From positions 295,910 to 359,909 of the forward strand of contig OZ006981.1 of the NCBI GenBank assembly GCA_963931185.1: 64,000 nucleotides of DNA, in the 5' to 3' direction. This stretch comes from an uncultured Bacilli bacterium. GTDB lineage: Bacteria; Bacillota_I; Bacilli_A; RF39; UBA660. Made by a program: the position numbers and the translations under genes. This document shows, in pieces, positions 3,788-38,007 of this stretch (positions are counted from its first letter, which is position 1; each line of letters begins with the position of its first letter). The notes below the pieces were generated by a model. The model ran no database searches. It was not told the DNA's origin and worked only from the letters and a program-made list of their open reading frames with translations.

Positions 3788-3788
3788 A

Positions 3789-8031: not shown

Positions 8032-8051
8032 ATGTTTTCACCTACAATCTA

Positions 8052-10353: not shown

Positions 10354-10418
10354 GCTATCACATTAATATTTTGTGTAATATTTAAAAAGTTATTTAATAT
10401 ATTTTAATAGGTGATAAT

Positions 10419-10664: not shown

Positions 10665-10666
10665 AA

Positions 10667-11539: not shown

Positions 11540-11656
11540 AAAACCACCTATAAAAATTTTATTATAAATATTTTAAAAATGCAACAAAATAAAAAGGATG
11601 ATTAATTCATCCTTATACCTTAATTGAATTTACTTTAATATTATTATATTTCTTTA

Positions 11657-12319: not shown

Positions 12320-12408
12320 TTTAAAAATTCCTTCCTCTCTTATTTTATAAATCAATTCTATTATAATTATTTTTTTTTGTCAATAAATTAATTGCATTAT
12401 TTTTTTTC

Positions 12409-12978
12409 TTAATATACATTTACATTATCCCTGTCAAGTTTACTTTTTATACTTTCTATGTCTAAAATTAAATCTCTTTCAACTTCAGAACCTTTCACTA
12501 CCAAATCATATCGATCAGAAGTATCTAAATCAGTCAATTTACTTAAATTAATTCCTCGATTATATGCTGCAGAATCAATATCAGTATTTTCACATTTCTC
12601 ATCTGTACATGACACTAAATGTGCATAATATACATACTCATATTCAGCTGTTCCCACAATCTGCTCTTTAGTTATAGCCACAAAAGACTTTTCTTTAGAA
12701 TAATATGTATCATATGGAGAACTGCTCAACTCAAAGTTATCAAGGCTTTCCATTTTTATAACAACAACACTATACTGATCAGGATAGTTAATGGAAGTAT
12801 CACTTCTTATTTTATATTCTGCAGAACTAATCATTTGCTTTGCGTCTTCCAAAAAAGTCTCTTTTTTATTTTTATCCAAAGTTGATATAATATTTGGAAT
12901 TGCTATTGTCATAATTACTCCCAAAATCACTATAACAGCTAAAAGTTCAATTAATGTAAATCCCTTATCTTTTAACAT
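12409..12978 (-). CDS. Prepilin-type pilin/pseudopilin (second tandem copy)
   Basis: KGFTLIELLAVIVILGVI motif; start MLKDKGF with a GGTGA RBS. Confidence 0.7.
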   Translation of the reverse strand: MLKDKGFTLIELLAVIVILGVIMTIAIPNIISTLDKNKKETFLEDAKQMISSAEYKIRSDTSINYPDQYSVVVIKMESLDNFELSSSPYDTYYSKEKSFVAITKEQIVGTAEYEYVYYAHLVSCTDEKCENTDIDSAAYNRGINLSKLTDLDTSDRYDLVVKGSEVERDLILDIESIKSKLDRDNVNVY

Positions 12979-13089
12979 AACATAATCACCATACCTTAAC
13001 ATGATTATAATATTTTAAAAAAAACTTTTCAAGAAAAATATTTTTTCAAATATATGGTTTTAAACAAAAAAAAACTCATCAAAATGAGT

Positions 13090-13515
13090 TTATTTTTGCA
13101 ACATATTCAATAAATTTACTTTAAACATATCTTTTTCAGGATGAGTTTTTGAAATCATAACACCTTTATAAGTTGATAATTCAGCACGATGACCTTCTTC
13201 AAGAATCCCCTCAGGTGTTATATTAGTAAGTAATACTATTTTTTTATCTTCGTATACAGTATAATGTAATCTTATTTCACCATGTACTTTTGCAAATAAT
13301 TTAGCCGTAGGCAACTTCAATTCATAACTACTAGTTTTTTCCTTTTTAGACACAGACACTAACTCACCTAAAAAATTACCACTTCTAATTTCAGGATAAT
13401 ACTCAAATGTTAATTTTTTATAGGCAAACATATTATATTTCCTTACAGTTCTTTCTTTTTTTCTAAAATCATTTTCATTTTGATATTCAAATATATAATT
13501 TTGTTTCATAAACAT
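13090..13515 (-). CDS. Hypothetical protein
   Basis: 141-aa ORF, no recognised motif. Confidence 0.4.
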   Translation of the reverse strand: MFMKQNYIFEYQNENDFRKKERTVRKYNMFAYKKLTFEYYPEIRSGNFLGELVSVSKKEKTSSYELKLPTAKLFAKVHGEIRLHYTVYEDKKIVLLTNITPEGILEEGHRAELSTYKGVMISKTHPEKDMFKVNLLNMLQK

Positions 13516-13628
13516 TCAACCCCCTAAAAACATACATACACATCCAACCCCTATTATCAAGATGTGTATGTATTATACCATAGCTTTACAAAAATGTCAA
13601 CTTTAATGTTATTTTTGATGACATTTTT

Positions 13629-13919
13629 TTAACTTTTATATATACTATCTATCTTTATTAACTTTAAATCATAATCAAATGACATTGCTATATGATATGC
13701 TCCACTTGATGAAGTATATTGCCATTGTATGAAATAATAATTTATCATTTCTGATACAGAGTTAGGACTACCTAACAATAACTTAACTTCATCTAATGTC
13801 ATACCAATTTTAATTTTATCTAAATTATTATCAAAATCATTTAATTTTTTACTTTCAAGCATAGGTGTTACTATCATACATACTATAAATAAAAAGAATA
13901 AAATACCCATAAATAACAC
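13629..13919 (-). CDS. Small secreted/membrane protein, unknown function
   Basis: 96 aa with an N-terminal hydrophobic helix. Confidence 0.4.
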   Translation of the reverse strand: MLFMGILFFLFIVCMIVTPMLESKKLNDFDNNLDKIKIGMTLDEVKLLLGSPNSVSEMINYYFIQWQYTSSSGAYHIAMSFDYDLKLIKIDSIYKS

Positions 13920-14047
13920 TACTTCTTTCTTTTATTAGTTTTTTAAATCTTTGTCTAATGGATAAGTTAAATATCTTGTTTCTATTTTAGAGTTATCACT
14001 TAATGTTGTCAATACATAATATGACATTTTAATGTTATTTTTAAAAA

Positions 14048-14575
14048 TTATAACAAATTATCGCATATCACATTTGCATTTTCATGAATATAATTAATTT
14101 TTATTGTTTTAATAATCCCATTCTTCTCAATTGAAATATCATATATAGCTGTATTAGTAGAGTTATCATAATAAAACACAAAATCACCGCAACTATAACG
14201 AGGAAAACTAGATAAATAACTAGAAAAATATTCCCTTAAGTATTCAGACTTTCGTAAAGTCTTTAACACTATTTCATTATCCTCATCTTTAATAAAAAAG
14301 CTCAATAATGGAATATTTACATCTATATAATCTGTTTTATAATTTTCCCTAAAAAAAGTTCTATTACATAATAAAATTAACATAAATATTACAATTATAA
14401 TAATAGTAACAGCCTCAAATATATATCTTTTCTTTCTGATTTCAATAATTTTTTCTTTTTCTAATGTTAATTTTTTAAATGCCTTATTAATCTTTTTTTT
14501 TCTTTTTTTTTCTTCTTTTCTTATTGCTTTTTTCTTTTCTTTATCAATATTAACTCCTTTAGTATTTTCTTCCAT
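14048..14575 (-). CDS. Membrane protein with Lys-rich cytoplasmic N-terminus, unknown function
   Basis: Start MEENTKG at 14575 with a strong AGGAGG RBS; one TM helix. Confidence 0.45.
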   Translation of the reverse strand: MEENTKGVNIDKEKKKAIRKEEKKRKKKINKAFKKLTLEKEKIIEIRKKRYIFEAVTIIIIVIFMLILLCNRTFFRENYKTDYIDVNIPLLSFFIKDEDNEIVLKTLRKSEYLREYFSSYLSSFPRYSCGDFVFYYDNSTNTAIYDISIEKNGIIKTIKINYIHENANVICDNLL

Positions 14576-14728
14576 AGTAAAAGACCTCCTATTATATCTC
14601 ATATTATATAATAACATATACTATATTTCAAGAAAGAAATGAATACCATTTAATCATTTAAATTAACACAAATTAATGTTAAAATAATTTTATATTCACT
14701 TTAACCAACTTACATATGGAGGATAATT

Positions 14729-15568
14729 ATGAAAATCAAGAATCTAATATTGCCAGAAACATCTCCTATATATTTTAACAAAAAAAATTTACAAAATCCC
14801 AAAAGAATAGCAAAAATATTAAATATAAATTATCAAATTGTAAAAACATGGAACAATTGGTTTTATATAAATAACAAATGGTATTATTATAAAAATTTTC
14901 TTCAATACCAAAATTCAGATGAGCATTTCCTAAATGAACTAATTGGAGAATTTTTAGCAACCTTTTTAGGATTAAATACCATAAATTATCAAATTGGATG
15001 TACACTTAATTGTGAAAAAGAAATGGAATATGGATTATTATCAGAAAACTTTAGACAAAAAAGAAAAAAATATATTGTTCCTACTGATTTATATTTAGAA
15101 GTTAATTGTACTCAGCTCAATAACTTAATAAATCTTAAACATTACTGTAAATCAAATGAAATGTATAAAAAATTATTATTGCAGTTATTGAAAATGATTG
15201 CATTAGACATTTATATGAATCAACAAGATAGAACAAAAAACAATTTTCTCTTTGAAAAAGAAAAAAATGGTATTATATTAGCGCCACTTTATGATTATGA
15301 AAAATCTCTCACAATAACATCATCAACAACAGACAGTCCACAATATAGTTCATGTATTTTTGGAATTGACATGTCAAATTACAACGAATTAGTTAAATAT
15401 CCGGAATTACAAAATTTATTACAAATAATAACTACATTAGATATAAATGATATACTTGATATAATTAGTAATAAATATAAAATTAAAATTCCTATTCTAC
15501 AAAGGAAAAAATATACAGAGATAACAGAAAAACGTAAAAAATTAATACGGAAATATTTAAAAAATTAA
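14729..15568 (+). CDS. HipA_C-like (CtkA/HipA fold) putative Ser/Thr kinase
   Basis: QQDRTKNNFLF...NGIILAPLYDYEKS resembles the HipA catalytic block GNGDAHLKNFSLL...LSPAYDL. GGAGG RBS. Confidence 0.5.
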   Translation: MKIKNLILPETSPIYFNKKNLQNPKRIAKILNINYQIVKTWNNWFYINNKWYYYKNFLQYQNSDEHFLNELIGEFLATFLGLNTINYQIGCTLNCEKEMEYGLLSENFRQKRKKYIVPTDLYLEVNCTQLNNLINLKHYCKSNEMYKKLLLQLLKMIALDIYMNQQDRTKNNFLFEKEKNGIILAPLYDYEKSLTITSSTTDSPQYSSCIFGIDMSNYNELVKYPELQNLLQIITTLDINDILDIISNKYKIKIPILQRKKYTEITEKRKKLIRKYLKN

Positions 15569-15765: not shown

Positions 15766-15856
15766 TGGCGGAGACAGAGGGATTTGAACCCTCGCACCAG
15801 TTTCCCAGTCTACACCCTTAGCAGGGGCGCCTCTTCGGCCTCTTGAGTATGTCTCC
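15766..15856 (-). tRNA. tRNA-Ser(GCU)
   Basis: 91-nt cloverleaf with long variable arm, anticodon loop CTGCTAA, encoded CCA. Acceptor stem GGAGACA/TGTCTCC. Confidence 0.85.
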
Positions 15857-16211: not shown

Positions 16212-16260
16212 TGGTGGGGCGTTAGGGATTCGAACCCTAGACCCACTGATTAAGAGTCAG
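16212..16260 (-). other. 3' half of the disrupted host tRNA-Lys(CUU) gene, including the 13-bp att core (16248-16260)
   Basis: Minus strand reads CTGACTCTTAATCAGTGGGTCTAGGGTTCGAATCCCTAACGCCCCACCA. This is a T-arm, acceptor 3' strand and CCA that pair perfectly with the 5' half at 26172-26198. Confidence 0.8.
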
Positions 16261-16404
16261 AGGGCTTACTTCCCTTTTTCTAAGGCTCCACCATATTGTC
16301 AAAAAACTTAAGCAACTTATTTTTCCCTTATTTTACGGGGCTTTGCTTGGTTTGTTGTATTTACTATAGCATTTTTTAGTTGGCTCTACAATAGCCTTTT
16401 TTTT

Positions 16405-16432
16405 GTTGTGGGTGCCGAAAAGGTGCCGAAAT
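16405..16432. promoter_or_regulatory. Candidate integrase arm-type sites, left end (GGTGCCGAA x2)
   Basis: GTGGGTGCCGAAAAGGTGCCGAAATG direct repeats between the att core and the int stop. The same 9-mer family recurs at the right end. Confidence 0.45.
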
Positions 16433-16446
16433 GTTAAAATCGTGTC

Positions 16447-17562
16447 TTAATTGATACTCAATGCACCATTTAACATGTTAGCAACCTCGGTTCTATTTGC
16501 TTGGAAAATGTGAGAGTAAATGCCTGTTGTTACTGCCATAGAAGAATGACCCATTCTTTCTTGTATCAATTTTGTGTGAACACCTAGTGCAATTTGTAAA
16601 CTTGCTGAACTATGTCTCAATGAGTGAAAGTTCATTTTTGGTAGTCCATATTTAACTGCTACTTTTTGAAATATTTTGCCACAAGTGGTTGGATACATAG
16701 GTTTCCCGTCTTTTGCTAGGAACAATTTATTGTTTGCTTTCCAATTATTTGATAAAGATAACTCCTCTTTGTAGGCTTTTAATATCTCAATAGTTGTATC
16801 GGTTAATACCATTTTTCTTGTTGATGTATCGTTCTTTGTTGCCTTTTCTACAATTTCGCCTTTAATAACATCTAGCGATTTATTGATAGTTAATACTTTG
16901 GTATCAAAATCAATATCGTTCCAAGTTAATGCCAAAATCTCACTTCTTCTTGCTCCCGAGTCTAGTGCTAGAACAATAAGTGCTTGATATTTTAGACACT
17001 CATTTTTTAACCCATTTAATAATGTATGTATTTGCTCTAGGTCGTAACACTCGGCAAGATGTTTTTCTTTTTTGGGTCTAGGTATATCAATATTAGGGTT
17101 AGTTTCAAGTAGTTTCCATTTAACGGCTTGTGTAAACATTAAATTGATTAAGTTGTAATAATGTAATAAAGTGTTATTTGTTACAACTTTTTTTCTTGTG
17201 CCATTTTTTAATTTTTTATATAGTTCCATTAAAGTAAAAGTTTCAATATCTTTTAGTTGCCAATTACCAATATAGCCATTGATTTTTTCTAACATTGACT
17301 TGTATCCGTCCAAAGTTTTTACACCGACATTTTCTTCACAATAGTTACGAATAAAGAAGTTCCCAAAATCTTCAAAGGTCATATTTTTGCTATCAACAAC
17401 AAAGCCACCTTTTGCATATTGTTGCTTGATTTCAAACTCTCTTGTTTCGGCTTGTTTTTTCGTTCCCTCAAAAATCTCCGTTTTTCTCTTTCTTTTTCCG
17501 TCTATATTGTAGCCAATTTCTGCTATTATTTTATATTTATTTTTTGATAGTTGTTTTATCAT
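16447..17562 (-). CDS. int: Site-specific tyrosine recombinase (phage/ICE-type integrase)
   Basis: N-terminal arm-binding-like domain (KNKYKIIAEIGYNIDGKRKRK). C-terminal catalytic HSLRHSSAS...HSSMAVTTGIYSHI (R, HxxR, Y). GGAGG RBS before MIKQLSK. Confidence 0.85.
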   Translation of the reverse strand: MIKQLSKNKYKIIAEIGYNIDGKRKRKTEIFEGTKKQAETREFEIKQQYAKGGFVVDSKNMTFEDFGNFFIRNYCEENVGVKTLDGYKSMLEKINGYIGNWQLKDIETFTLMELYKKLKNGTRKKVVTNNTLLHYYNLINLMFTQAVKWKLLETNPNIDIPRPKKEKHLAECYDLEQIHTLLNGLKNECLKYQALIVLALDSGARRSEILALTWNDIDFDTKVLTINKSLDVIKGEIVEKATKNDTSTRKMVLTDTTIEILKAYKEELSLSNNWKANNKLFLAKDGKPMYPTTCGKIFQKVAVKYGLPKMNFHSLRHSSASLQIALGVHTKLIQERMGHSSMAVTTGIYSHIFQANRTEVANMLNGALSIN

Positions 17563-17635
17563 TTTTCGTTCCTCCAATCATTTGATAAAACAATCTCTAT
17601 CTACTTATAATTATACCATATTTTCCTTGTTTTTC

Positions 17636-17833
17636 CTAGTAAAATAGAGATGTTTTGCTTTCTTTTTCTTGTAATTTTTCTACCCATGTATTGATACTTT
17701 TTAAATCAAACATAATACGATTTCCTATTCTAAAGTGTGGTATTTTTTTCTCTCTTACCAACTTTCTAATTTCCGATATAGATATTTTTAAATAGTTTGA
17801 TAAATCTTTTAAATTACATATTTCTTTTGTCAT
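17636..17833 (-). CDS. xis: Excisionase/Xis-family small HTH DNA-binding protein
   Basis: 65 aa; ISISEIRKLVREKKIPHFRIGNRIMF matches the excisionase-family HTH; GGAGG RBS; directly upstream of int. Confidence 0.7.
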   Translation of the reverse strand: MTKEICNLKDLSNYLKISISEIRKLVREKKIPHFRIGNRIMFDLKSINTWVEKLQEKESKTSLFY

Positions 17834-17939
17834 TTGTTAAACCTCCAATTTTTTGATTTTCCGTTCGAACAATTAGAGTTTACCTTTAACAAAAGCCTCA
17901 AATCTCGTACAAGTTTTTTGATTAAGTGTTCCATTTTGA

Positions 17940-18230
17940 AAACTAAAAAAAGCCCGTAATATAAGGGCTAGAGAGATTTACTTGTCCGATTTTTCGAGTA
18001 ATAAGTTTTAATTTTGTTATGATATTTTTTGATAAGTTGTGATACTTTGTGATAGTTTATGATACTTTTTTCGCCCAACACCCTATATATATAAATAAGG
18101 AAAAAATACGGGGCTAGCAAAATCAAAAAAAATGAAAATATTTTATACTTATTTTTGACCTTTTAACTCGAAAAATCGGTATTAAAAAACAAGAAAAAGC
18201 CCGTAAGTAAAGGGTTTTCATACTTTCAAA
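17940..18230. promoter_or_regulatory. Highly structured ORF-free control region (hairpins, inverted repeats, iterons)
   Basis: AAGCCCGTAA(T/G)ATAAGGG hairpins at 17947-17972 and 18198-18222. Inverted repeat GTCCGATTTTTCGAGT (17984-17999) / ACTCGAAAAATCGG (18164-18177). GTGATACTTT-type iterons at 18019-18066. Confidence 0.5.
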
Positions 18231-18375
18231 AAAGAACACTTTTACTTGTTTTATGATACTTTCTTTTAGGTATTTTCTTGGTAAGATGTAATCACAAACG
18301 AAGCAAGTCGACTTAAAAGTTTGTAAAAAAAATGTTAGAATAGTGGTAACCCCACAAATGAAAGGAATGATTAAA

Positions 18376-18861
18376 ATGACTAACAAAGAACCAAGAACTG
18401 TTTTTATAGGAAGTGTTGAAGAACTTAAGGAGGTTATAAAAGAAGCCCGTGAATTAGAAAAAAATAAAAATGCAATGAAAGAGAAAGTAAAAGTATCTAA
18501 TAAAGACTTAAAAAGATTTGAAGAAGAATATAAGATTTGGATAGAGAAAATCAATAATGCTATGAAAAAACATAACTCTGATAAGTTTGATAGCGAAAAT
18601 AGTGATTTAGAAGATATATTACTAATCGACTATGAGTTATATCTAGGCAAAAAAATGGAAGATATTTTCAATGAGTATGAATATTTATATGATAGCATAG
18701 ACGATATGATTTATATTATGAAAAATACAGGTTTTATAATTGCACCATTTATAATAAGTGATAGAACTATGTTATTAGATACTATTGAAAGTTTTGAAAA
18801 TGGCGATTATGATGTTGAAGATGGTATTAAAAGAGAATATTTTAATTTAAATAACTATTAA
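18376..18861 (+). CDS. Island cargo protein A, unknown function (acidic C-terminus)
   Basis: 161 aa from MTNKEP with an AAAGGA RBS; followed by a hairpin terminator at 18868-18898. Confidence 0.55.
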   Translation: MTNKEPRTVFIGSVEELKEVIKEARELEKNKNAMKEKVKVSNKDLKRFEEEYKIWIEKINNAMKKHNSDKFDSENSDLEDILLIDYELYLGKKMEDIFNEYEYLYDSIDDMIYIMKNTGFIIAPFIISDRTMLLDTIESFENGDYDVEDGIKREYFNLNNY

Positions 18862-18867
18862 AATAAA

Positions 18868-18898
18868 GGTTATCTTATATGAGATAGCCTTTTTTCGT
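18868..18898 (+). terminator. Hairpin terminator after cargo gene A
   Basis: GGTTATCT-tatatg-AGATAGCC stem followed by TTTTTT. Confidence 0.5.
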
Positions 18899-18906
18899 GG
18901 TATAAT
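18897..18906 (+). promoter_or_regulatory. Extended -10 promoter element (TGnTATAAT) for cargo genes B-C
   Basis: GTGGTATAAT, the same 10-mer as at 21248-21257; lies 10-20 nt upstream of the B gene RBS. Confidence 0.5.
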
Positions 18907-18927
18907 TAAGGCATGGAGGCTTTAATT

Positions 18928-20076
18928 ATGGGAAAAAGACACAATACCTTATCGGACGATATTTTTCGCAATAGCAAGTATATAAACACTTTAGAACAAG
19001 CACTTGAAATTGACGACTTTAGAAAAGAATACAAAGAACAATATGACATTATGCTTGAAGTATATAAAATGCTTATCACAATAAACAATATAATATTCGC
19101 TGATAGTAATAAATCTATCAATGATAAAATATACGAAATGGAACTTGAGTTTGAAAAAATTGTTGGGGAACAAGTTGACGAAGAAAGCGACGAAAAAAGA
19201 AAACATAAATATAGTGTAAGAACTTTAAAAGGCTTGATAGATAGTAATACGAGATACTTATTCAATAAGTTTGTTGAGTGGTATGATTATTTAATGAACT
19301 TTAACAAATTAGATATGGTTAAGCAAGAGGTCGAAGAAGAAATGAAAAGACTTGAAAGCATTGACTTTGACAAAGTTGTTAAAGGTGGTCTACTTTATGA
19401 GAAAAATAAAAATAGCAACTATAAAATCTATACAAGCAAACTAGATTATCTATTCCTTAACAATAAAGATGTATGGAAAGAATACAAGCAAGACTTTTAC
19501 GACACATACGGAATCCAACTAACGGATCGAGAGAAAAACGATATTTACTTTGTATTTAAGTTAATTGCTTATGCAAATAATGGTATTGTAAAATTACTAT
19601 TTCAAGACGAAATAAAAGACTTTGAATTAACCGAAAAAGACAATGCCGAAGATTATTTCAAAGCCTATCTAACATCTTTAAATATAGATATAAAAGATAA
19701 TAGAAAGTTTATGAGTAAAGCCGACATCTTTTTAAATGAGTTGCTGATAACTAACAATGTTATTATAGAACAATTAGAAAATGACACTAAAAACGAGCAT
19801 ATCATTGATATATCACATATTGAGGTTGAGCCTTTTGTTGCAAATTATGACTTATACTTTTTCTATGTAAATATGGAAAAGATAACTACGGGCTTATATG
19901 AGTTTACTATCAAAACTGATGTTATAGTTAAGATTATCAATGACTTAAAAGAAATCTATAATCTTATGTATGACAATGTGCCTACTATCACGGACGAAAA
20001 ACAAGTGCAAGAGGCTTTTTCTAAAATACAAAATATAATTGATAGAAATAAGAAAATGTTTGAGAGGTTGAGTTAA
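18928..20076 (+). CDS. Island cargo protein B, unknown function
   Basis: 382 aa from MGKRHNT with a GGAGG RBS; no nucleotide-binding or nuclease motif recognised; stop overlaps the gene C start (TAATG). Confidence 0.6.
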   Translation: MGKRHNTLSDDIFRNSKYINTLEQALEIDDFRKEYKEQYDIMLEVYKMLITINNIIFADSNKSINDKIYEMELEFEKIVGEQVDEESDEKRKHKYSVRTLKGLIDSNTRYLFNKFVEWYDYLMNFNKLDMVKQEVEEEMKRLESIDFDKVVKGGLLYEKNKNSNYKIYTSKLDYLFLNNKDVWKEYKQDFYDTYGIQLTDREKNDIYFVFKLIAYANNGIVKLLFQDEIKDFELTEKDNAEDYFKAYLTSLNIDIKDNRKFMSKADIFLNELLITNNVIIEQLENDTKNEHIIDISHIEVEPFVANYDLYFFYVNMEKITTGLYEFTIKTDVIVKIINDLKEIYNLMYDNVPTITDEKQVQEAFSKIQNIIDRNKKMFERLS

Positions 20077-20795
20077 TGAAATCAATAAATGTTGTTAAGA
20101 TGTTAGAGGAAGAAGAAAAAACAAAGGCAAAAGAACGAAAAAGCACGGATGCTGAAACACTATTAAAAGATATAATATGGAATTGTATTGATAACTTTAT
20201 AATGCCCTATGTGAAATCAAAAATTGAAATAACGGAACACGAGCAAGTCGTATATGAAGATAACCTTTTTAATTTATTAGTTAAGCATAATGACTTTACG
20301 GAAGAAGATAGTATCGCCTTTGACGAGGAAGAAAGAAACTTTTTAAATACAAGCAATAGGAAAGTTAAAGTTGATATGGGCAAACGATATGCTGAAACAA
20401 TTATAAGAACACATACACTTGACGAAAAAGTGGAAGAATATTATATCAAGTATACAAAGCCTATGCTTAAGGAATTACAAAAACAAAATGTTATTATCTA
20501 TGATACTGAAGCATTAGATAATAAAACAAAAAGTGCTACCACTAAAATAGATAAATTAGTAAAAAAGATTATTACTGATAAAGCCAAAGAAAGCAAGATG
20601 TATTCGCTTTTTAAAAAAATATTCGGTAATGAGTTTATAGAAAAAAATGATGTTATCTTTAGTGATAACAAAGAACAAAAGGAAAAGTTTTGTAATTGTA
20701 TCAAGACTTATATAGAAAATAACTACGATAATATTGACTATAAAGCCATTGATAACATTGACTTTGCTGATATGAACGAGTTTAAACTCGATTAA
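20076..20795 (+). CDS. Island cargo protein C, unknown function
   Basis: 239 aa; translationally coupled to B; followed by a strong terminator. Confidence 0.6.
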   Translation: MKSINVVKMLEEEEKTKAKERKSTDAETLLKDIIWNCIDNFIMPYVKSKIEITEHEQVVYEDNLFNLLVKHNDFTEEDSIAFDEEERNFLNTSNRKVKVDMGKRYAETIIRTHTLDEKVEEYYIKYTKPMLKELQKQNVIIYDTEALDNKTKSATTKIDKLVKKIITDKAKESKMYSLFKKIFGNEFIEKNDVIFSDNKEQKEKFCNCIKTYIENNYDNIDYKAIDNIDFADMNEFKLD

Positions 20796-20797
20796 AG

Positions 20798-20822
20798 AGG
20801 TTTTAAGCCTCTTTTTTGATGT
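20798..20822 (+). terminator. Rho-independent terminator after cargo gene C
   Basis: AGAGG-ttttaag-CCTCT hairpin followed by TTTTTT. Confidence 0.6.
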
Positions 20823-20924
20823 TTTAAACTTTGGTATATATAAATAACACTCCTAACATAAATCATTTAAATAGTAGGCAAAAAATGGCTATTTTCGAGC
20901 ATTTAAAACATGTGATACACACCT

Positions 20925-21176
20925 TTACTTGTTTTCGTCTATGGGAGCAAATAACTCTCTTATATCTATACCTAAAATCTTTGCTAAATGGTAAAGACTA
21001 CCTACTGAAATAGTTTGAAATACTTTGTCGCTTTCGAGGTTGCCAATAAAACTTAAAGCATAGTTGCTTGCCTCGGCTAATCGTTCTTGGGTAAAGCCTT
21101 TGTCTTTTCGTAATTTTTTCAAGTTTTGACCTATCACATAGTAGATATAATTTTCATCGTTTTTGTTGTCATTCAT
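20925..21176 (-). CDS. XRE-family (Cro/CI-type) HTH transcriptional regulator
   Basis: LKKLRKDKGFTQERLAEASNYALSFIGNLESDK HTH; divergent from the 21279 operon. Confidence 0.75.
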   Translation of the reverse strand: MNDNKNDENYIYYVIGQNLKKLRKDKGFTQERLAEASNYALSFIGNLESDKVFQTISVGSLYHLAKILGIDIRELFAPIDENK

Positions 21177-21247
21177 AGCCTCACCACCTATATATAAATT
21201 ATCTCAAAAATAAAGTTTTAACTTTATCTATGGTTCGTGGATAAAAT

Positions 21248-21257
21248 GTGGTATAAT
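21248..21257 (+). promoter_or_regulatory. Extended -10 promoter (TGnTATAAT) of the XRE-divergent operon
   Basis: TGTGGTATAAT sits 22 nt upstream of the gene D ATG. Confidence 0.55.
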
Positions 21258-21278
21258 GTTAGTGAAAGGAGTTTGTTT

Positions 21279-21737
21279 ATGCTAACTAAAGATATTTTTG
21301 TAAAAGGTTTAACTACTGTTACCAAAGAGGATTTGAAAACTTATTTAGTCTTTGTTCAACAGTATTTTGATGTAATAGATGAATATTGTCTAAAAGTCCA
21401 AGAGACTCAAAGTGCTATCTTAAATCAAAAGCCAGATACGAATGACCGAGAGGCTGTAGAAGTTTTAATTATGGATAAGTTTAAAAGTGATGAAATGAGC
21501 AGATTATTAAAGGACTATGATAGAACAGAAAGATTAACAAAAGAGTTAGAATTATTGAAAAGAAATTTTAGAACATCAGAAAGAGATATTTTATGGAATT
21601 TAGAATCTTTTGACCGAAAAAGTAATTATAGACTTTATGGTTGTCTAAAACAAGTTGAACGTGATTATGAAGAACTTGAGACATTATTAACAGAAGTCGA
21701 TAAATTCACTACTGAGAGTCACAACTATCACTTTTAA
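21279..21737 (+). CDS. Island protein D, unknown function
   Basis: 152 aa from MLTKDIF with leader GAAAGGAGTTTGTTTATG. Confidence 0.5.
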   Translation: MLTKDIFVKGLTTVTKEDLKTYLVFVQQYFDVIDEYCLKVQETQSAILNQKPDTNDREAVEVLIMDKFKSDEMSRLLKDYDRTERLTKELELLKRNFRTSERDILWNLESFDRKSNYRLYGCLKQVERDYEELETLLTEVDKFTTESHNYHF

Positions 21738-21753
21738 CTAAGGGAGTTTGTTT

Positions 21754-22257
21754 ATGAAAAGAAGAAGTTATTTTAAATTGACTGGTAAAGAAAAACAAAT
21801 GGTAAATAATATTATGTTAAAACAAGAGGGTTATTTTAGTATGTTTAATATATCTATTATGACAATATCAGTATTGTGTATATTTATATCTATTTCGCAA
21901 AATAATATAATATTCGTATTGATAATATCTCTTATTATGTTTTTGGTGTTAAGATTTAAAATGTTTTATTATTATTTAAAGCATACTGAAATAAATTTTG
22001 ACATCAATAGTAAAGAAAACAATGAGATGTCAAAATATACTGATAATCAAACAAAGTTTATTTTAGGAATATTTGGGGTAGTAATGGTAATCGGTGCTAT
22101 GGGGTTGCTTGGTGTTTTTGATAACAATGACACTGGTGGAAGTTCCGACAATGGGTATAAAACTAATTGCTATCCAAGAAGTGATGGAAAAATATGTTGC
22201 ACATCTTGTAAAAAGACGAGTTATGGCGATATAGGTTGTGGAACAACCTGTAATTAA
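21754..22257 (+). CDS. Two-TM membrane protein with Cys-rich C-terminal tail
   Basis: Leader AGGGAGTTTGTTTATG nearly identical to that of gene D; two hydrophobic helices; C-terminus CYPRSDGKICCTSCKKTSYGDIGCGTTCN carries 7 Cys. Confidence 0.5.
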   Translation: MKRRSYFKLTGKEKQMVNNIMLKQEGYFSMFNISIMTISVLCIFISISQNNIIFVLIISLIMFLVLRFKMFYYYLKHTEINFDINSKENNEMSKYTDNQTKFILGIFGVVMVIGAMGLLGVFDNNDTGGSSDNGYKTNCYPRSDGKICCTSCKKTSYGDIGCGTTCN

Positions 22258-22275
22258 AAAGGAGGGAATTAAAAA

Positions 22276-22572
22276 ATGGCTTTAATTAAGTGTAGTGAGT
22301 GTGGCAAAGAGATAAGCGACAAATCTAAAAAATGTATTTATTGTGGCAACCCTATTACAATAATTGCAATAAATAGACATTGTGAATTGTGTGGTGGAGA
22401 AATAGACTTAAATAATTGTGAATGTTTAAGATGTGGTTTTACTGATATATCTCTTTTGAATAAGAAAACAAGGGACGAAAGTCTTAAAAGGTTTAGGGAA
22501 AAAATGGAAGAAATAGCAACAGGAAGTTCTAAAAGTTTTAGAAAGAGAGAAAAAGAAAATGAAAAAAATTAG
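22276..22572 (+). CDS. Double zinc-ribbon protein
   Basis: CSECGK...CIYCG and CELCGG...CLRCG (two CxxC pairs in tandem); AAGGAGGG RBS. Confidence 0.55.
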   Translation: MALIKCSECGKEISDKSKKCIYCGNPITIIAINRHCELCGGEIDLNNCECLRCGFTDISLLNKKTRDESLKRFREKMEEIATGSSKSFRKREKENEKN

Positions 22573-22930
22573 TTTAGTATTATTATGTGGGGTTATTTTA
22601 TTAGGTGTATGTGGTTGTGGTAGTAAAGAAGAAAAATTAAATGAAATGGAAAATATCATTTATAATTCAATGATTAAAACAAGTAAAACAGCCGATAGCC
22701 CATCTGATTTAAGGTTAATTGAGGTATTTAAAAAAGATGGTAATTTTTATATAAATCTTAATAAAGGAGATGGAACATATTGCTATTATGTGAACACATC
22801 AAGAGAAGAATTATCTTATGAATATGGCACTTGTCATATAGCAGAATTGCAAAACGAAACTTATGATGATGTTTCTATTTCAAAAGTAAATAATAAATAT
22901 AAAAAATATGTTGAGGATATGGGATTATGA
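22559..22930 (+). CDS. Lipoprotein, unknown function
   Basis: Signal peptide with lipobox LLGVCGC. Confidence 0.55.
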   Translation: MKKISLVLLCGVILLGVCGCGSKEEKLNEMENIIYNSMIKTSKTADSPSDLRLIEVFKKDGNFYINLNKGDGTYCYYVNTSREELSYEYGTCHIAELQNETYDDVSISKVNNKYKKYVEDMGL

Positions 22931-23751
22931 AAAAAAAGAAAATAATTGTTGGGATAGCATTGTTAGTAATAATTTGTGTAATATTATGTATAGTGTTTAT
23001 GTTCAATAAAAATAATGGTTTATTAGAGTTTGACAAAGTTATATCAAGTGGGACAAAAACGGTAGTTATTTTTGAAAATAATCAAGCCCAAGAAGAAAAG
23101 TTGAAAAATATTTTAGAAGAAAATAATGTCAATTTTATTTCTATTGATGTATCCAAATTAAAAGATAATGATAAAAATAAATTGAAAACGACATTAGACT
23201 TGGAAAACTTAACTACTTATTATGGAGCAATTATTGAAAATAATGATGTTTTACGAAAAATATACTTAAAAGATATTGAAACAAATGATAATGAAAAAAT
23301 TATGCAAATGCTTGCTTATTATGGGGTATTAGAAAACTCAAAAGAATATTTAAACGATTACAACTATAAAATGGGTGTTGAGGCACTTAATAATGGTCTA
23401 ATTTATAGTGCTAATAGTTACTTGAAAAGTGTCGATAAAGACTATAAAGATGTCAATGAATTATTAAAAGATAAAAGATTTTTTCTATTAAATAAATATC
23501 ATTATGATTACCCAGATAATATTAGAAAAATGACTTTTCAATATTTACCAAATGATAAAATATATCACGATAGCTTTGTTGGAGAAGAATACAATCAAAA
23601 AGCATATGTTAAAAATGATATTATTTATATATGCACTCGTAGTTGTGATAGTGAATATGCTAACACAAGAGAATTTTTACATATAGATTATGTTAATGAA
23701 ACAGAGTTAAAATTTAAGGAGTGGGATTTTGTTTTAAAAAAAGTTGACTAA
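22927..23751 (+). CDS. N-terminally membrane-anchored protein, unknown function
   Basis: MKKKKIIVGIALLVIICVILCIVF anchor plus a ~240-aa extracytoplasmic domain; ATGA overlap with the lipoprotein gene. Confidence 0.55.
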   Translation: MKKKKIIVGIALLVIICVILCIVFMFNKNNGLLEFDKVISSGTKTVVIFENNQAQEEKLKNILEENNVNFISIDVSKLKDNDKNKLKTTLDLENLTTYYGAIIENNDVLRKIYLKDIETNDNEKIMQMLAYYGVLENSKEYLNDYNYKMGVEALNNGLIYSANSYLKSVDKDYKDVNELLKDKRFFLLNKYHYDYPDNIRKMTFQYLPNDKIYHDSFVGEEYNQKAYVKNDIIYICTRSCDSEYANTREFLHIDYVNETELKFKEWDFVLKKVD

Positions 23752-23837
23752 CTTTATATAGGACGAGGCGACCGATTTTTGAAAAGTCAAGCCATAAATT
23801 ACTAAAGCCCACCCCGTGTATGTGTCTATATAAAAAT

Positions 23838-23868
23838 CAAAGTTGTGCGATGCACAACTTTTTTATAT
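23838..23868 (+). terminator. Rho-independent terminator ending the 21279-23751 operon
   Basis: GTTGTGC-gat-GCACAAC hairpin followed by TTTTTTAT. Confidence 0.6.
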
Positions 23869-24018
23869 TGTCAATAGGTTTGGTGCTGGAATATATGGGC
23901 TTGGTGCAACTTTAAGCACTACCATAGCAATTATACTATGCTTGCACTAACTCTTGTTAAATGCCTTATATTGCCTTAATATGAGGTGTTTTTTTATGCC
24001 TCGATCCGAGTGCTTGCT

Positions 24019-24110
24019 ACCCTATAAATTGATATAAGTATCTTTTGTATATTTTTGGTTGTTCTTGTTTCCTCTTAAGTAAGGGTAAGTGTTAGTGGCT
24101 ACCCTATAAG
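24019..24110. repeat. 12-bp direct repeat GCTACCCTATAA (x2, 80 bp apart) in an ORF-free, GC-richer region
   Basis: Copies at 24019-24030 and 24099-24110, upstream of the second Xis-like gene. Confidence 0.5.
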
Positions 24111-24129
24111 ACACGGGAGGTATGTATCA

Positions 24130-24294
24130 ATGAATTATTACACTACAAAGGAAATAAGCGAGATTTTAGGACTATCAATTAAGACTATTCAAAAGTTAAT
24201 TAGAACAAGACAACTAAAAGCATTTAAAATTGGTAATCGTTTCATAGTCGAAGAAAGCACACTAAAAGACTACATCAATGCAAGACAAGTATAG
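24130..24294 (+). CDS. Second excisionase/MerR-like small HTH protein
   Basis: 54 aa, MNYYTTKEISEILGLSIKTIQKLIRTRQLKAFKIGNRFIVEE; GGGAGG RBS; below the ORF-track size cutoff. Confidence 0.55.
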   Translation: MNYYTTKEISEILGLSIKTIQKLIRTRQLKAFKIGNRFIVEESTLKDYINARQV

Positions 24295-24372
24295 ACTTAA
24301 CAAGCACTAGATAACATTTTTATAATTGTATCAATGAAAGGAAAAAACTATTTTAATGGGGGGGCAAGATAA

Positions 24373-24771
24373 ATGGCAAAAGTTGATATGGAGCAAGCCT
24401 CGTGGCAAGATGTATTGCAAGCAATAAAAGAAAGCAATATCAATTATGGCAAAGACTATGACATTTATACTTATTATCACTATGACAATGGCAATATAGT
24501 TGGGGTTGTTTATGGTTGGTTTTATGATAGGTGCTTATACATTGACATTGTTTTTGTTAGTGCCGAGTATCGAGGCAAAGGAATTGCTACATCAATGCTT
24601 AAGAGAGTAATACAAGAAATAAAAAGCAAAGACATTGACAATATTATTGTTGAGTTGGTGCAATATAAAGGAAAATATCTACTTGCAAATATTCTTGTCC
24701 GTCTTGGTTTTTGTTTGCATAGTCTATATTACATCTTAAGGCAAAGAGTTATCTATTATATGTCGTTGTAA
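24373..24771 (+). CDS. GNAT family N-acetyltransferase
   Basis: VSAEYRGKGIATSMLKRVIQE acetyl-CoA-binding motif (R/Q-x-x-G-x-G/A). Confidence 0.65.
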   Translation: MAKVDMEQASWQDVLQAIKESNINYGKDYDIYTYYHYDNGNIVGVVYGWFYDRCLYIDIVFVSAEYRGKGIATSMLKRVIQEIKSKDIDNIIVELVQYKGKYLLANILVRLGFCLHSLYYILRQRVIYYMSL

Positions 24772-24931
24772 TTAGATAATAGATAGATAAACACATAATC
24801 TTTGTTAGTTTGCCGTCTAATTAAAAGAAAAAACGGCTTTTCAATATAAGCCATTTTTGTTCAATTTTACGAATAATTATATGCCACCATTGACTTATGC
24901 CCTTTTTGGCACATATTTAGGAGGTTTGAAA

Positions 24932-25450
24932 ATGAAAAAACAAGCAATAGGTTTTATCGTTGACGAACACGGAGTTGTTAATAAAGAGATATACATAGGC
25001 GACCGAGTTCGTATTATACGAGAAAGCCAAAGACAACATTTACAAGATTTTAAAAAGACAAATAAAAGCAAAACATATTGTAAGGTATTTTGTAAGGCAA
25101 GCGATATATTGGCAAGTCTTAATTTAACAGCAAGTGAATATAAACTAATTTTTGCTATGCTCGGTCATATCGGTTTTGCCGAGTTTAGTGGCTACCTTAT
25201 AAAAGTTCAATGCAATATGTTTTGTGGTTACTTAAACGGCGAGGAATTAAAAAGTATTGCTAATATGCAAGATAGGACATTTTGGCGAGCCATTGATAGT
25301 TTAGTAAAAAAAGAGATTATCGCCATTGAGAAAGTTGGACGAGAAAATCATTTTTTGGTTAATCCGTTTATATTTATGAAAAATGACGAAATAACTCGTA
25401 CCTTATTCAATTTGTTTTGTGATACAAAGTTCAATTATTTAAACGAATAA
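24932..25450 (+). CDS. Putative winged-helix replication/regulatory protein (RepL-like?)
   Basis: AGGAGG RBS 7 nt before MKKQAIGF; 172 aa. Family assignment is uncertain. Confidence 0.4.
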   Translation: MKKQAIGFIVDEHGVVNKEIYIGDRVRIIRESQRQHLQDFKKTNKSKTYCKVFCKASDILASLNLTASEYKLIFAMLGHIGFAEFSGYLIKVQCNMFCGYLNGEELKSIANMQDRTFWRAIDSLVKKEIIAIEKVGRENHFLVNPFIFMKNDEITRTLFNLFCDTKFNYLNE

Positions 25451-25494
25451 TTGCTCTCACTTAATTAGTAGGCCATTACAAAAAGAGATAAACT

Positions 25495-25752
25495 TTACTT
25501 GTCTATCTCTTTTTTGCTACTTAAGTAACTACGAATTATTGCTACTTGCACGGGGTTTTGTTCTTGTATTTCTTTTGCGAACATATACTTTAATTTTTCA
25601 AAATGTTTTTCTAAAAGTTTTCTATCTTTTTTTGATAGTTCGCACTCGTCTAGTATTTGACGAGTTGTTGCCATTTCAAGAACAATGTTTTTAAACTCCT
25701 TTGTAATAGTAAATTGTAAGTCTTTTAAGTTTTCAATATCTTTTTCGTCCAT
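25495..25752 (-). CDS. Small hypothetical protein
   Basis: 85-aa charged helical protein. Confidence 0.4.
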   Translation of the reverse strand: MDEKDIENLKDLQFTITKEFKNIVLEMATTRQILDECELSKKDRKLLEKHFEKLKYMFAKEIQEQNPVQVAIIRSYLSSKKEIDK

Positions 25753-25837
25753 TTCTTCTTAACTCCTATCTTATATTTTTTATTTGCTCCTTATCAATGT
25801 TTTATCAAAAAAATTGGTTAATAGATAGAGATTTTAG

Positions 25838-25872
25838 AAAAGGTGCCGAACGGGTGCCGTAAAAGGTGCCGT
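25838..25872. promoter_or_regulatory. Candidate integrase arm-type sites, right end (GGTGCCGAA/GGTGCCGTA/GGTGCCGTC)
   Basis: AAAAGGTGCCGAACGGGTGCCGTAAAAGGTGCCGTC: three copies of the 9-mer family seen at 16408-16432, about 290 bp from the right att core. Confidence 0.45.
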
Positions 25873-25877
25873 CTTAT

Positions 25878-25913
25878 GATAATTTGTGATACTTTATGAT
25901 ACTTTTGTAATTT
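25878..25913. repeat. TGATA(A/C)TTT iterons (x3)
   Basis: TTATGATAATTTGTGATACTTTATGATACTTTTG; the same iteron family as 18019-18066 and 18248-18258. Confidence 0.5.
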
Positions 25914-25995
25914 TCTAAAAAAGTCATTTTTCACTTAAAAATACATTTTTTTATATCAAAATTTGATACTATTTTTTCAAAATAATTTTAAAATC

Positions 25996-26044
25996 AAAAA
26001 ATAAAAAAGTCTAGCAAACCCTTATAATTGCTAGGCTTTTTAAT
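25996..26044 (-). terminator. Terminator downstream of the element-borne tRNA-Lys
   Basis: TAGCAA...TTGCTA hairpin followed by a T-run on the minus strand. Confidence 0.45.
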
Positions 26045-26052
26045 ATTCAACA

Positions 26053-26128
26053 TGGTGGATTGTTAGGGATTCGAACCCTAGACCCATCGATTAAGAGTCG
26101 ATTGCTCTACCAACTGAGCTAACAATCC
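26053..26128 (-). tRNA. tRNA-Lys(CUU), element-borne intact copy
   Basis: GGATTGTTAGCTCAGTTGGTAGAGCAATCGACTCTTAATCGATGGGTCTAGGGTTCGAATCCCTAACAATCCACCA. Perfect acceptor stem GGATTGT/ACAATCC, anticodon loop CTCTTAA, CCA encoded. Confidence 0.85.
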
Positions 26129-26158
26129 ATTTTTAAGGCTCCTTAACTTGGAACAACC

Positions 26159-26198
26159 GATTAAGAGTCAGTTGCTCTACCAACTGAGCTAACGCCCC
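26159..26198 (-). other. 5' half of the disrupted host tRNA-Lys(CUU) gene, including the att core copy (26159-26171)
   Basis: Minus strand reads GGGGCGTTAGCTCAGTTGGTAGAGCAACTGACTCTTAATC, then diverges into non-tRNA sequence (GGTTGTTCC...). Confidence 0.8.
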
Positions 26199-26272
26199 AA
26201 AATAAGCTACTAATAAATTATAACATATTTTAAAAAAAAGAAAAGACTTTATTTAAAAAATAATATAAAATC

Positions 26273-26572
26273 TTACAAATTACTATTTATCAATGTTTCT
26301 ATGTCCTTATCTGTATTGATATAATTATTACAAACAGTTTCTAAATATGATATATATTTCTCATTACTAGCAATAATTTCTTCAAATTTATTATACAAAT
26401 TTTTCAAATCATTAATTACTACATCACTTGTTTGAGATAACCAAAAATTTGGTATTTGATTAGCTTTAGTCTTAACATTATCAAACAATGTAGCAATATT
26501 TAAATTTTCTTTTTTTAATTCTGCTATTTTCTCCTTTAATCCATTGAAATCTATTTTTATATTACTTGTCAT
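26273..26572 (-). CDS. Small helical protein, WXG100/Lap-like (uncertain)
   Basis: 99 aa, predicted all-helical; sits next to a WXG100-like gene. Confidence 0.4.
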   Translation of the reverse strand: MTSNIKIDFNGLKEKIAELKKENLNIATLFDNVKTKANQIPNFWLSQTSDVVINDLKNLYNKFEEIIASNEKYISYLETVCNNYINTDKDIETLINSNL

Positions 26573-36826: not shown

Positions 36827-38007
36827 TATTTCACCTTGATCCTCATCATTGAATTTTTTTCAATTGGAAAATCCACTATTAACTTAATTATTTGTTCTGG
36901 GTGCCTAGCTACTTCAATAGAATTCATATTTTCATCATAAACTTTATCTATTTTAAATGAATAAATGCTACCACTAGGAGTAAAAATTTCTACTTCATCA
37001 TTTTCTTTAAAGTAGTTTCTTTGGGTAAGAGTTACTATTTTAGTATTCTTATCATAATCTAAAATTAAGCCTAAATAGTCTTGATTAGAATTTTCTTGTC
37101 TGCCAGTATAATACTGATCAGTGTAGTCTGCTTTTTTCATATAATAATGGGAACTTGTTTCTCGATTAGCAACACGCGATAATATTTTTTCTTCCTTCTT
37201 TATTATATCTTTATTCAGTGTCCCATCATAATAGCTATCAATAAGTTTTCGATAAGAAGAAATAACAGTAGCCAAATAATAAGGTGAACGCATTCTCCCT
37301 TCAATTTTCAACGACTTAACTCCACTTGCAATTAACATATCTAAATATTCTGCCATATTTAAATCTTTAGTTGCCATAGTAAACTTTTCTTCATAATTAG
37401 CTATATCAAAGGCAAAGCGACATATTTGAGCACAGCCCCCACGATTAGAGTCTCTATTAGTAAAATAATTTGATAAACAACAGCGACCACTATAGAAAGT
37501 ACACATTGCACCATGAATAAATACTTCTAAATCAATATCAATTTTATCTAAAATTTCTTTAATCTCTTTAATAGATACCTCTCTTGCCAAAACAACTCTA
37601 TCAATTTTTTCTTTTTTCCAAAATTTAATTGCTTCTAAATTTGTTGTCGAACCTTGTGTACTTAAATGAACTTCAACATCAAAATTATCTTTTATATATT
37701 TTACTAAAAAAGGATCGCTAACAATAAAAGCATCAATTTTGGCATCTACAACTTTTTTTATAAAGTCATATACACCATATAAATCTTCGTTATGAAAAAC
37801 AATATTTAAAGTTAAATATACTTTCTTTCCCAAATTGTGAGCAAAAGTAGTAGCTTGTTTTATTTCATCTAAACTAAAATTATTAGCATTAGCCCTCAAA
37901 CTGTATTCTTGTCCACCAATATATACAGCATCGGCACCATACAATAAAGCTATTTTTAAGCGTTCCAAATCACCGGCTGGTGATAACAATTCCACCTTTT
38001 TAATCAT
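36826..38007 (-). CDS. Peptidase U32 family protein (TrhP/YrrO-like)
   Basis: VELLSPAGDLERLKIALLYGADAVYIGG N-terminus; sits in the mltG-yrrM-yrrN-yrrO gene order. Confidence 0.75.
   Translation of the reverse strand: MIKKVELLSPAGDLERLKIALLYGADAVYIGGQEYSLRANANNFSLDEIKQATTFAHNLGKKVYLTLNIVFHNEDLYGVYDFIKKVVDAKIDAFIVSDPFLVKYIKDNFDVEVHLSTQGSTTNLEAIKFWKKEKIDRVVLAREVSIKEIKEILDKIDIDLEVFIHGAMCTFYSGRCCLSNYFTNRDSNRGGCAQICRFAFDIANYEEKFTMATKDLNMAEYLDMLIASGVKSLKIEGRMRSPYYLATVISSYRKLIDSYYDGTLNKDIIKKEEKILSRVANRETSSHYYMKKADYTDQYYTGRQENSNQDYLGLILDYDKNTKIVTLTQRNYFKENDEVEIFTPSGSIYSFKIDKVYDENMNSIEVARHPEQIIKLIVDFPIEKNSMMRIKVK

Follow-up and report, generated by a model that had tools for sequence, protein, structure and literature searches.

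The locus described here lies in a 64-kb stretch of DNA from an uncultured Bacilli bacterium (the window, in whose coordinates positions are given unless another locus is named) and consists of a host tRNA-Lys(CUU) gene that is split by a 9,911-bp element (~9.9 kb, window 16248-26158). All tRNA, attachment site (att) and junction features discussed below are on the minus strand. The element is bounded by two copies of a 13-bp core, CTGACTCTTAATC, which an exact-match scan found exactly twice in the window: at 26159-26171 in attL, where it forms part of the anticodon stem-loop, and at 16248-16260 in attR. The 5′ half of the host gene (26159-26198) comprises the acceptor strand GGGGCGT, the D arm and the 5′ strand of the anticodon stem with its loop, and ends in the attL core; it reads GGGGCGTTAGCTCAGTTGGTAGAGCAACTGACTCTTAATC (26198-26159) and reaches through the anticodon loop to the second base of the 3′ stem. 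The displaced 3′ half (16212-16260) holds the 3′ strand of the anticodon stem, the variable loop, the T arm and ACGCCCC-A-CCA. The two acceptor strands, GGGGCGT (26198) and ACGCCCC (16212), are complementary only across the insertion. When ARAGORN was run on the whole window it called three tRNAs, a tRNA-Ser(GCU) at 15766-15856, a sequence labelled tRNA-Lys(CUU) at 16212-16289, which overlaps attR, and a tRNA-Lys(CUU) at 26053-26128, inside the element.

Empty and occupied sites were found by looking up the host protein adjoining attL (26273-26572, minus strand) in public assemblies; loci from these and other assemblies are denoted by L numbers. On one contig of the same species (L188, 1.0 Mb), the element is present as in the window. 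On three others (L189, L190 and L191) the element is missing and the flanks are identical to those of the window. These three contigs carry an intact tRNA-Lys(CUU) gene, GGGGCGTTAGCTCAGTTGGTAGAGCAACTGACTCTTAATCAGTGGGTCTAGGGTTCGAATCCCTAACGCCCCACCA, which equals the 5′ half of the window (its first 40 nt) plus the 3′ half (its 3′ part) exactly, and which is followed by the same terminator and then by tRNA-Ser(GCU), as at the window locus. Since the empty site corresponds to the joined halves, the insertion measures 9,911 bp and is precise, and the population is polymorphic for it. The element sits in the anticodon loop of a formerly intact host tRNA-Lys(CUU) gene and destroys that gene. The opposite assignment, with 26053-26128 as the restored host gene and 26198-26159 as an old relic, was rejected because the outer halves pair only with each other, in acceptor and anticodon stems alike, and the empty site is made of those halves.

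At the near junction, the host 5′ half and the core run into GGTTGTTCCAAG. At the far junction (16274-16212) the order is element flank, core and 3′ half, GGGAAGTAAGCCCT-CTGACTCTTAATC-AGTGGGTCTAGGGTTCGAATCCCTAACGCCCCACCA. An earlier note on this DNA, made from the letters alone, had read both junctions in this way and had concluded that the host tRNA is not regenerated. Both statements agree with the present data, in which the empty site of L189-L191 consists of the two halves and the junction chimeras are not tRNAs. In canonical tRNA-targeting elements the part of the tRNA that lies 3′ of the crossover is included in attP, and the gene is thereby restored at one junction. If the window contained such an island, the core would be longer than it appears, or the chimera at 16212-16289 (element 5′ part plus host 3′ half) would be a functional tRNA, and the tRNA inside the element would be redundant. 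Indeed, ARAGORN and the Rfam tRNA model both call a tRNA-Lys there (from 16212 and 16215, respectively, to 16289), and a weak call of 35.6 bits was obtained at the attR of L184. However, the Rfam score of the window chimera was 32.2 bits (gathering score 29), compared to 73.6 bits for the element tRNA, and in its structure the acceptor has two mismatches, the anticodon stem has one and the D arm is missing. No tRNA was called at the equivalent junctions of L001, L002, L003, L177, L186 and L171, and junction calls elsewhere did not exceed the 35.6 bits of the L184 attR, whereas element tRNAs scored 72.7-75.7 bits. Nor is the element side kept as a tRNA 5′ half: the 3′ acceptor strands of the hosts vary (ACGCCCC, AGAGGAC, ACAGCCC, ACAGTCC), while the element-side sequence, which begins GGAGCCT, is constant in the window, L001 and L002. 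The 32.2-bit call is the score of half a tRNA and not of a rebuilt gene, and neither junction re-forms a tRNA. The length of the core, which the earlier note had singled out for checking, leads to the same result: because identity between attP and attB is limited to the stem-loop (13 bp here, 17 bp in L003), ending at the anticodon stem, no tRNA is restored at either junction. On account of its low score, its defective stems and the uncalled homologous junctions we rejected a regenerated chimeric tRNA at attR, and we hold a canonical island to be extremely improbable.

The element has a complete tRNA-Lys(CUU) gene of its own, of 76 nt (26053-26128) and 30 bp away from the attL core, which differs in sequence from the host gene. 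Its acceptor stem is GGATTGT/ACAATCC, its anticodon stem ATCGA/TCGAT and its CCA end is encoded. The Rfam model gave 73.6 bits for 26056-26128 (gathering score 29), and a cloverleaf check showed that every pair is standard and the cloverleaf flawless. The 30-nt spacer between core and tRNA (26129-26158), GGTTGTTCCAAGTTAAGGAGCCTTAAAAAT, starts with GGTTG, the C′ core-type half-site, and includes the 9-mer GGAGCCTTA at 26134-26142. On the 3′ side of the tRNA, folding revealed an intrinsic terminator, a hairpin followed by a U-run, at about 25996-26041 (−12.6 kcal/mol, z −2.4), which is kept with compensatory changes in L003, L177 and L179; a consensus terminator scan had missed the terminators, whose loop is of 10 nt, and folding confirmed them. 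The complete and different tRNA-Lys(CUU) and its own downstream hairpin, both of which the earlier note had described, were therefore recovered by ARAGORN, Rfam and folding. The same note had pointed to an 11/13 match between the core and the anticodon region of the element tRNA, and had taken it as a sign that attP evolved from a tRNA-Lys anticodon-loop sequence. The match is real, being the sole sequence in the window that equals the core with two mismatches (26089-26101, TCGACTCTTAATC), but it only reflects the anticodon arms of two tRNA-Lys(CUU) genes. That attP mimics an anticodon stem-loop is supported by the attP of L003, which has all 17 bp.

Relatives of the integrase were gathered from species-representative genomes and a large protein collection. 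In all relatives with the int-distal end within the contig (L003, L177 and L179) the order is host promoter, tRNA 5′ half, core, 29-30 bp, complete tRNA-Lys(CUU), terminator and arm sites, and at the int end the order continues with int, arm sites, core and host 3′ half. Together with the window, these loci involve three different host tRNA sequences, and their integrases are 69-89% identical. Host acceptor 5′ strand and anticodon stem 5′ strand are GGGGCGT/ACTGA in the window, where the element tRNA has GGATTGT/ATCGA; GGACTGT/ACTGA in L003 (integrase 86%; element tRNA GGACCGT/ATCGA); GGACTGT/ACTGA in L177 (89%; element tRNA GGACTGT/AACGA); and GTCTCGT/ACAGA in L179 (69%; element tRNA GGGGCGT/ACTGA). 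Other relatives are truncated near the relevant end. The L181 contig (integrase 68%) breaks inside a tRNA-Lys 3′ half where one is expected, and L001 and L002 (integrase 91%) are cut before the int-distal end. In the P0017-type elements (integrase 63%) the far end lies just past the 10-kb flank; L172 starts ~3 nt past the position at which the CCA would end, and its sequence from there on can be aligned to the region that follows the tRNA in L179 and L181.

Comparison of the four element tRNAs with the four host tRNAs showed eight perfect cloverleaves, in which almost all differences are compensatory and fall at the paired positions 2-5:68-71 and 28-29:41-42. Non-compensatory differences were found only at positions 17 and 60 among the eight, and only at D-loop position 17 among the element tRNAs; apart from these positions, the loops, the T arm, discriminator A and CCA do not vary. 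All cloverleaf pairs of the element tRNAs, which reached 72.7-75.7 bits, are standard. These data bear on the explanation that the tRNA-like sequence serves attP as DNA, by spacing or bending the stretch between core and P′ arm, or is a relic of an ancestral attP, and contains no working gene. The attP of tRNA-targeting elements normally includes tRNA-derived sequence, and the position of the tRNA between core and arm-type sites would suit this explanation. However, Watson-Crick covariation in a cloverleaf is not expected of a DNA spacer, and the invariance of the loops, T arm and CCA, the high scores and the conserved intrinsic terminator are also at odds with it, so that we consider it very unlikely. 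The compensatory pattern and the conserved terminator argue instead for selection on a functional RNA gene and against spacer DNA.

The element tRNAs resemble host genes of the same group. That of L179 (L179 86-161) is identical at 75 of 76 positions to the host tRNA of the window (26198-26159 plus 16247-16212), and that of L177 has the acceptor stem of its own host, which suggests that host genes of this group of bacteria were the source of element tRNAs or converted them. Three of the four have an altered anticodon stem. We considered whether such a stem could be immunised, leaving the element tRNA unable to act as attB. This would fit the window, L003 and L177 and fails for L179, whose element tRNA bears the canonical 17-bp anticodon arm; divergence of the arm is therefore not general among element tRNAs, and the idea is kept only as a weak possibility.

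To the side of the shared arrangement, some relatives contain further mobile sequences. Past attR, L172 (for example 11700-15300), L174 and L175 have a second element-like gene set with zinc-ribbon ORFs (open reading frames) and a helix-turn-helix repressor, which may be a tandem or decayed neighbouring element. In L184, past attR and a dCMP deaminase gene, another mobile region (3357-12306) contains a second tyrosine integrase, a Mob_Pre relaxase, a DnaB_C-like ATPase and a type IIG/Eco57I-like restriction-modification gene.

The element backbone also occurs with other recombinases. A conserved 85-aa ORF of no known family that lies next to the P′ arm (25495-25752, minus strand) was used to find backbone relatives and gave 108 homologue clusters, and its sampled contexts share a backbone of winged-helix protein, HTH_17 protein, XRE protein and a 239/378-aa pair. 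In L194-L202 and L208-L215 this backbone is accompanied by a large serine recombinase at other insertion loci, and in L203 by a different tyrosine integrase beside tRNA-Met(CAT). Integration modules are thus exchangeable on one backbone. In L209 (1-8232), one of the serine-recombinase relatives, the two contig ends overlap by 98 nt (97% identical, spacing 8,134 bp) and the recombinase gene leads straight into the 85-aa gene; L209 assembles as an 8,134-bp circle, which indicates that such elements circularise. Neither a tRNA-Lys gene nor CGGCACC repeats, the candidate arm-type sites described below, could be detected in L194-L202, L203 or L208-L215. Because the tRNA is missing from backbones with other recombinases, it goes with the integrase that destroys tRNA-Lys(CUU) and not with the backbone. 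This co-occurrence of the tRNA with the integration module is the strongest indirect argument for a replacement role.

It also weighs on the possibility that the tRNA is cargo, serving for AAG supply or as a decoy or replacement against anticodon nucleases that attack tRNA-Lys, and that its place by attP is incidental. Phage tRNAs are often explained in this way (PMC10865867), AAG is used 21 times per 1000 codons in element ORFs versus 17 in host ORFs, and the altered anticodon stem in three of the four element tRNAs would be in line with such a role. In contrast, the element tRNA invariably matches the isoacceptor that is lost and invariably lies in attP, at 29-30 bp from the core and in the direction of the host promoter; backbone relatives with insertion sites elsewhere lack it, and the gap in AAG usage is small. 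Incidental cargo is in our judgement unlikely, although a cargo role is compatible with compensation for the lost host gene and the two are not exclusive.

The ends of the element contain repeats of the heptamer CGGCACC, which occurs six times in the window (0.2 expected), five of them at the element ends and all five in the orientation of the tRNA. Two lie just downstream of int (16411-16428, minus strand) as putative P arm-type integrase sites, and three at 25842-25871 (minus strand) as putative P′ arm-type sites. The sixth copy (37932-37938, plus strand) is isolated and probably due to chance. The pattern of two plus two to three repeats was also found in L003, L177, L179, L181 and L188, and the int-proximal pair in L001, L002, L171, L184 and L186, which makes ten related loci with conserved repeats in all. 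The repeats are best read as arm-type integrase sites, in which case the element tRNA and its terminator, placed between the core and the P′ arm sites, are physically inside attP.

The position of the crossover is indicated by L179, where host and attP stems differ (ACAGA/TCTGT and ACTGA/TCGGT, respectively). Its junctions read ACAGA-loop-TCGGT and ACTGA-loop-TCTGT, which limits the exchange to GACTCTTAATC and agrees with an overlap region formed by the 7-nt loop. An anticodon-loop sublocation is reportedly among those that Williams distinguished for tRNA-targeting integrases in a classification of 2002, which PMC11476347 and PMC4383910 cite. Three further features of the core region were observed. 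The half-sites of attP seem swapped with respect to those of attB, attB being GCAACTGA-loop-TCAGTGGG and attP GCCC(T/A)CTGA-loop-TC(G/A)GTTGC. As a result of this swap, both junctions are near-perfect palindromes around the anticodon loop (window 16248-16270 and 26149-26181; L003 760-800 and 11290-11325), the attL of L003 being GAGCAACTGA-CTCTTAA-TCAGTTGCTC. Finally, GGAGCCTTA occurs twice in the window (16281-16289 and 26134-26142, minus strand; 0.16 expected, with none of 100 shuffles reaching two) and in attP forms a direct repeat 20 nt before and 16 nt after the core. It is also present on the int side of L001 and L002; L177 has another flanking repeat, GAGCT..AAAAGAT, and none is obvious in L003 and L179. 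The GGAGCCTTA repeat may be a site for an accessory protein.

Two putative promoters were located by eye. The first, an extended −10 element TGTTATAAT at 26217-26225 (minus strand), ends 18 nt upstream of the host tRNA 5′ end and is identical in the empty-site strains. The second, TTGTAG-17-TATAGT with a TG extension, lies in the element at 16363-16391 (minus strand) and points toward the core; it is conserved as TGCTATAAT in L001-L003. No terminator was found between the host 5′ half and the element tRNA, which has the same orientation as the host gene, and because of this co-orientation the host tRNA promoter should drive the element tRNA after integration.

Taking these features together, we propose a mechanism in which the integrase would be positioned by the CGGCACC arm-type sites, two beside int and three beyond the element tRNA, and would exchange strands in the 7-nt anticodon loop, using the stem as inverted core-type sites. 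Integration leaves a 5′ half attached to its promoter and a displaced 3′ half. The host tRNA promoter would then transcribe the 5′ half, the spacer, the element tRNA and the terminator, and RNase P and 3′ trimming would release a tRNA-Lys(CUU) that replaces the one lost. In the excised circle, transcription from the promoter downstream of int would cross attP and enter the same tRNA; after integration this promoter would face the dead 3′ half. Excision, presumably directed by the HTH_17 protein encoded beside int, would restore the host gene. It is likely, in our assessment, that a site-specific element recombined its attP with the anticodon stem-loop of tRNA-Lys(CUU), disrupted that gene and supplies a replacement tRNA from within attP. 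Whether, beyond this, a replacement tRNA built into attP is expressed by capturing the promoter of the gene it replaces, so that integration amounts to a one-step swap of tRNA alleles and the elements move tRNA-Lys(CUU) alleles between host species, is a proposal for and against which we see the chances as evenly balanced.

The earlier note had already proposed that the element tRNA takes the place of the host tRNA. We infer from the same isoacceptor, place and orientation in four elements, from the compensatory changes and from the absence of the tRNA in backbones with other recombinases that it would compensate for the loss, and this part of the note stands as inference only. Loss of tRNA-Lys(CUU) would plausibly matter to a host whose genome is small (the longest contig carrying the host UppP is of 1.32 Mb). 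Several points weigh on the other side. AAG makes up only 17.5% of Lys codons (~17 per 1000 codons). The search for tRNA genes covered 64 kb of a ~1.3-Mb genome, and a need for compensation would hinge on other copies of tRNA-Lys(CUU) and on coverage of AAG by tRNA-Lys(UUU). Complete attL ends were seen at only four loci (window, L003, L177 and L179). The element tRNA of L179, whose anticodon arm has the usual attB sequence, might also serve as a target. Lastly, both promoters were spotted as extended −10 elements, and the consensus scan, given their weak −35, reported neither.

The genes of the element are as follows. The tyrosine integrase (16447-17577, minus strand) has a SAM-like N-terminal and a catalytic domain (PF00589, 2.6e-26; PF14659; PHROG_1, 9e-67), and its best phage match is 33% identical. 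Directly upstream of int, an HTH_17 protein (17636-17833, minus strand; PF12728, 5.2e-11; PHROG excisionase families) is a putative excisionase, or directionality factor. Three conserved backbone ORFs of 172, 387 and 239 aa follow at 18343-20795 (plus strand) and have 395 homologues in metagenomes; Pfam and PHROG searches assigned them to no family, and an AlphaFold2 model of the 387-aa protein, built on a 14-sequence alignment, was unusable (predicted local distance difference test, pLDDT, 44.7). Further genes are an XRE/Cro-CI type repressor (20925-21176, minus strand; Pfam HTH_19 and HTH_3, PHROG transcriptional repressor), a variable cargo of membrane, zinc-ribbon and lipoprotein-like ORFs (21748-23751, plus strand), a small HTH_17 DNA-binding protein of excisionase/MerR-like type (24130-24294, plus strand; PF12728, 1.9e-13) and a GNAT acetyltransferase, also cargo (24373-24771, plus strand; PF00583, 1.4e-11). 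A winged-helix protein (24857-25450, plus strand; probable true start 24932, 172 aa) is possibly a replication initiator: its homologues give weak DnaD_N, HTH_36 and Rep3_N matches, and weak PDB matches are to winged-helix regulators and TubR. Searches of Pfam and PHROG with the element proteins gave no credible match to capsid, terminase, portal, tail, lysis or conjugation genes, the single match in the lysis category, to an Rz-like spanin (E 0.006), being too weak to count, and no close relatives were found among IMG/VR or JGI metagenome contigs. We class it as a small and apparently non-viral integrative element, for which a plasmid-like or a satellite nature is as possible as that of a temperate phage.

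The earlier note had called the arrangement unusual. It is not unprecedented, as it matches tRNA-dependent lysogeny, defined by Guerrero-Bustamante and Hatfull (mBio 2024, PMC10865867). In that system the attB of a tyrosine integrase lies in a tRNA gene, the common core is of only 8-17 bp and a phage tRNA of the same isotype complements the loss; in mycobacteria, int-attP plasmids integrate only with the phage tRNA, and tRNA-defective phages give clear plaques (PMC10865867). Known cases include Fionnbharth (K4), Cluster L, Cain, Gaia, BrutonGaster and others (PMC10865867). At the sequence level, the present element shows the corresponding three traits, namely an integrase with attB in a tRNA gene, a short core without reconstruction and an element-encoded cognate tRNA. 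If the reading proposed here is true, destroying a target tRNA and bringing one's own copy would extend beyond actinobacteriophages to uncultured, small-genome Bacilli of the animal gut, and to a small element without recognisable phage genes. It would also provide a route for horizontal replacement of host tRNA alleles, and the order int, arm sites, core, 30 bp, tRNA and arm sites would constitute a compact, self-contained integration module. Integration-proficient vectors made from such systems would have to include the tRNA, as shown for mycobacteria (PMC10865867). Software that detects islands and prophages by a restored tRNA together with a displaced 3′ fragment would set the ends of such elements wrongly, and may label the element tRNA as the host gene.

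Compared to canonical elements that target an anticodon loop, the present one shares the tyrosine integrase, the crossover in a 7-nt loop, the stem as symmetric core sites and the flanking direct repeats. It differs in that attP/attB identity stops at the anticodon stem-loop, no cloverleaf forms at a junction and a separate whole gene is supplied. As in the actinobacteriophages, the integrase is of the tyrosine type and has arm-type sites, attB lies within a tRNA gene (in the phages often tRNA-Lys) and the core is too short for a tRNA to be rebuilt. The phages are temperate and tailed, whereas here a 9.9-kb element with no detectable virion genes resides in an uncultured gut Bacilli host of low guanine-plus-cytosine content. 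Their requirement for the tRNA is experimental (PMC10865867), and that proposed here is drawn from sequence. The phage tRNA is typically away from attP: that of Fionnbharth overlaps gene 37 and has a demonstrated promoter, that of Cluster L is in a tRNA region and that of Gaia is downstream of int. Here, in contrast, it is part of attP, at 30 bp from the crossover and in the orientation of the host gene, a layout of which we found no description in the literature searched, the coverage of which was incomplete. What appears to be new is the host phylum, the apparently non-phage element and the tRNA embedded in attP beside the crossover.

Two further systems come close. Prophage Lj965 of Lactobacillus johnsonii is cited as a likely case outside Actinobacteria (PMC10865867); like the present element, it is a Firmicute element whose target tRNA is reportedly not rebuilt and whose own tRNA genes could complement (Ventura et al. 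2003, as cited in PMC10865867 and PMC3714127). Lj965 differs as a 40-kb siphovirus-type prophage, whose four tRNA genes, for Ser, Glu, Tyr and Phe, lie mid-genome at 12.8-13.4 kb, ~11.5 kb past int (119-1294) according to its GenBank record. In Sinorhizobium meliloti prophages, a bioinformatic case, insertion in the central part of tRNA-Leu(UAG) inactivates the gene and a prophage tRNA-Leu(UAG) replaces it (PMC11476347). These prophages belong to Alphaproteobacteria, and their replacement tRNA is like that of unrelated species (97.6% to Octadecabacter), whereas the element tRNAs described here are of the same tRNA-Lys(CUU) family as those of their hosts.

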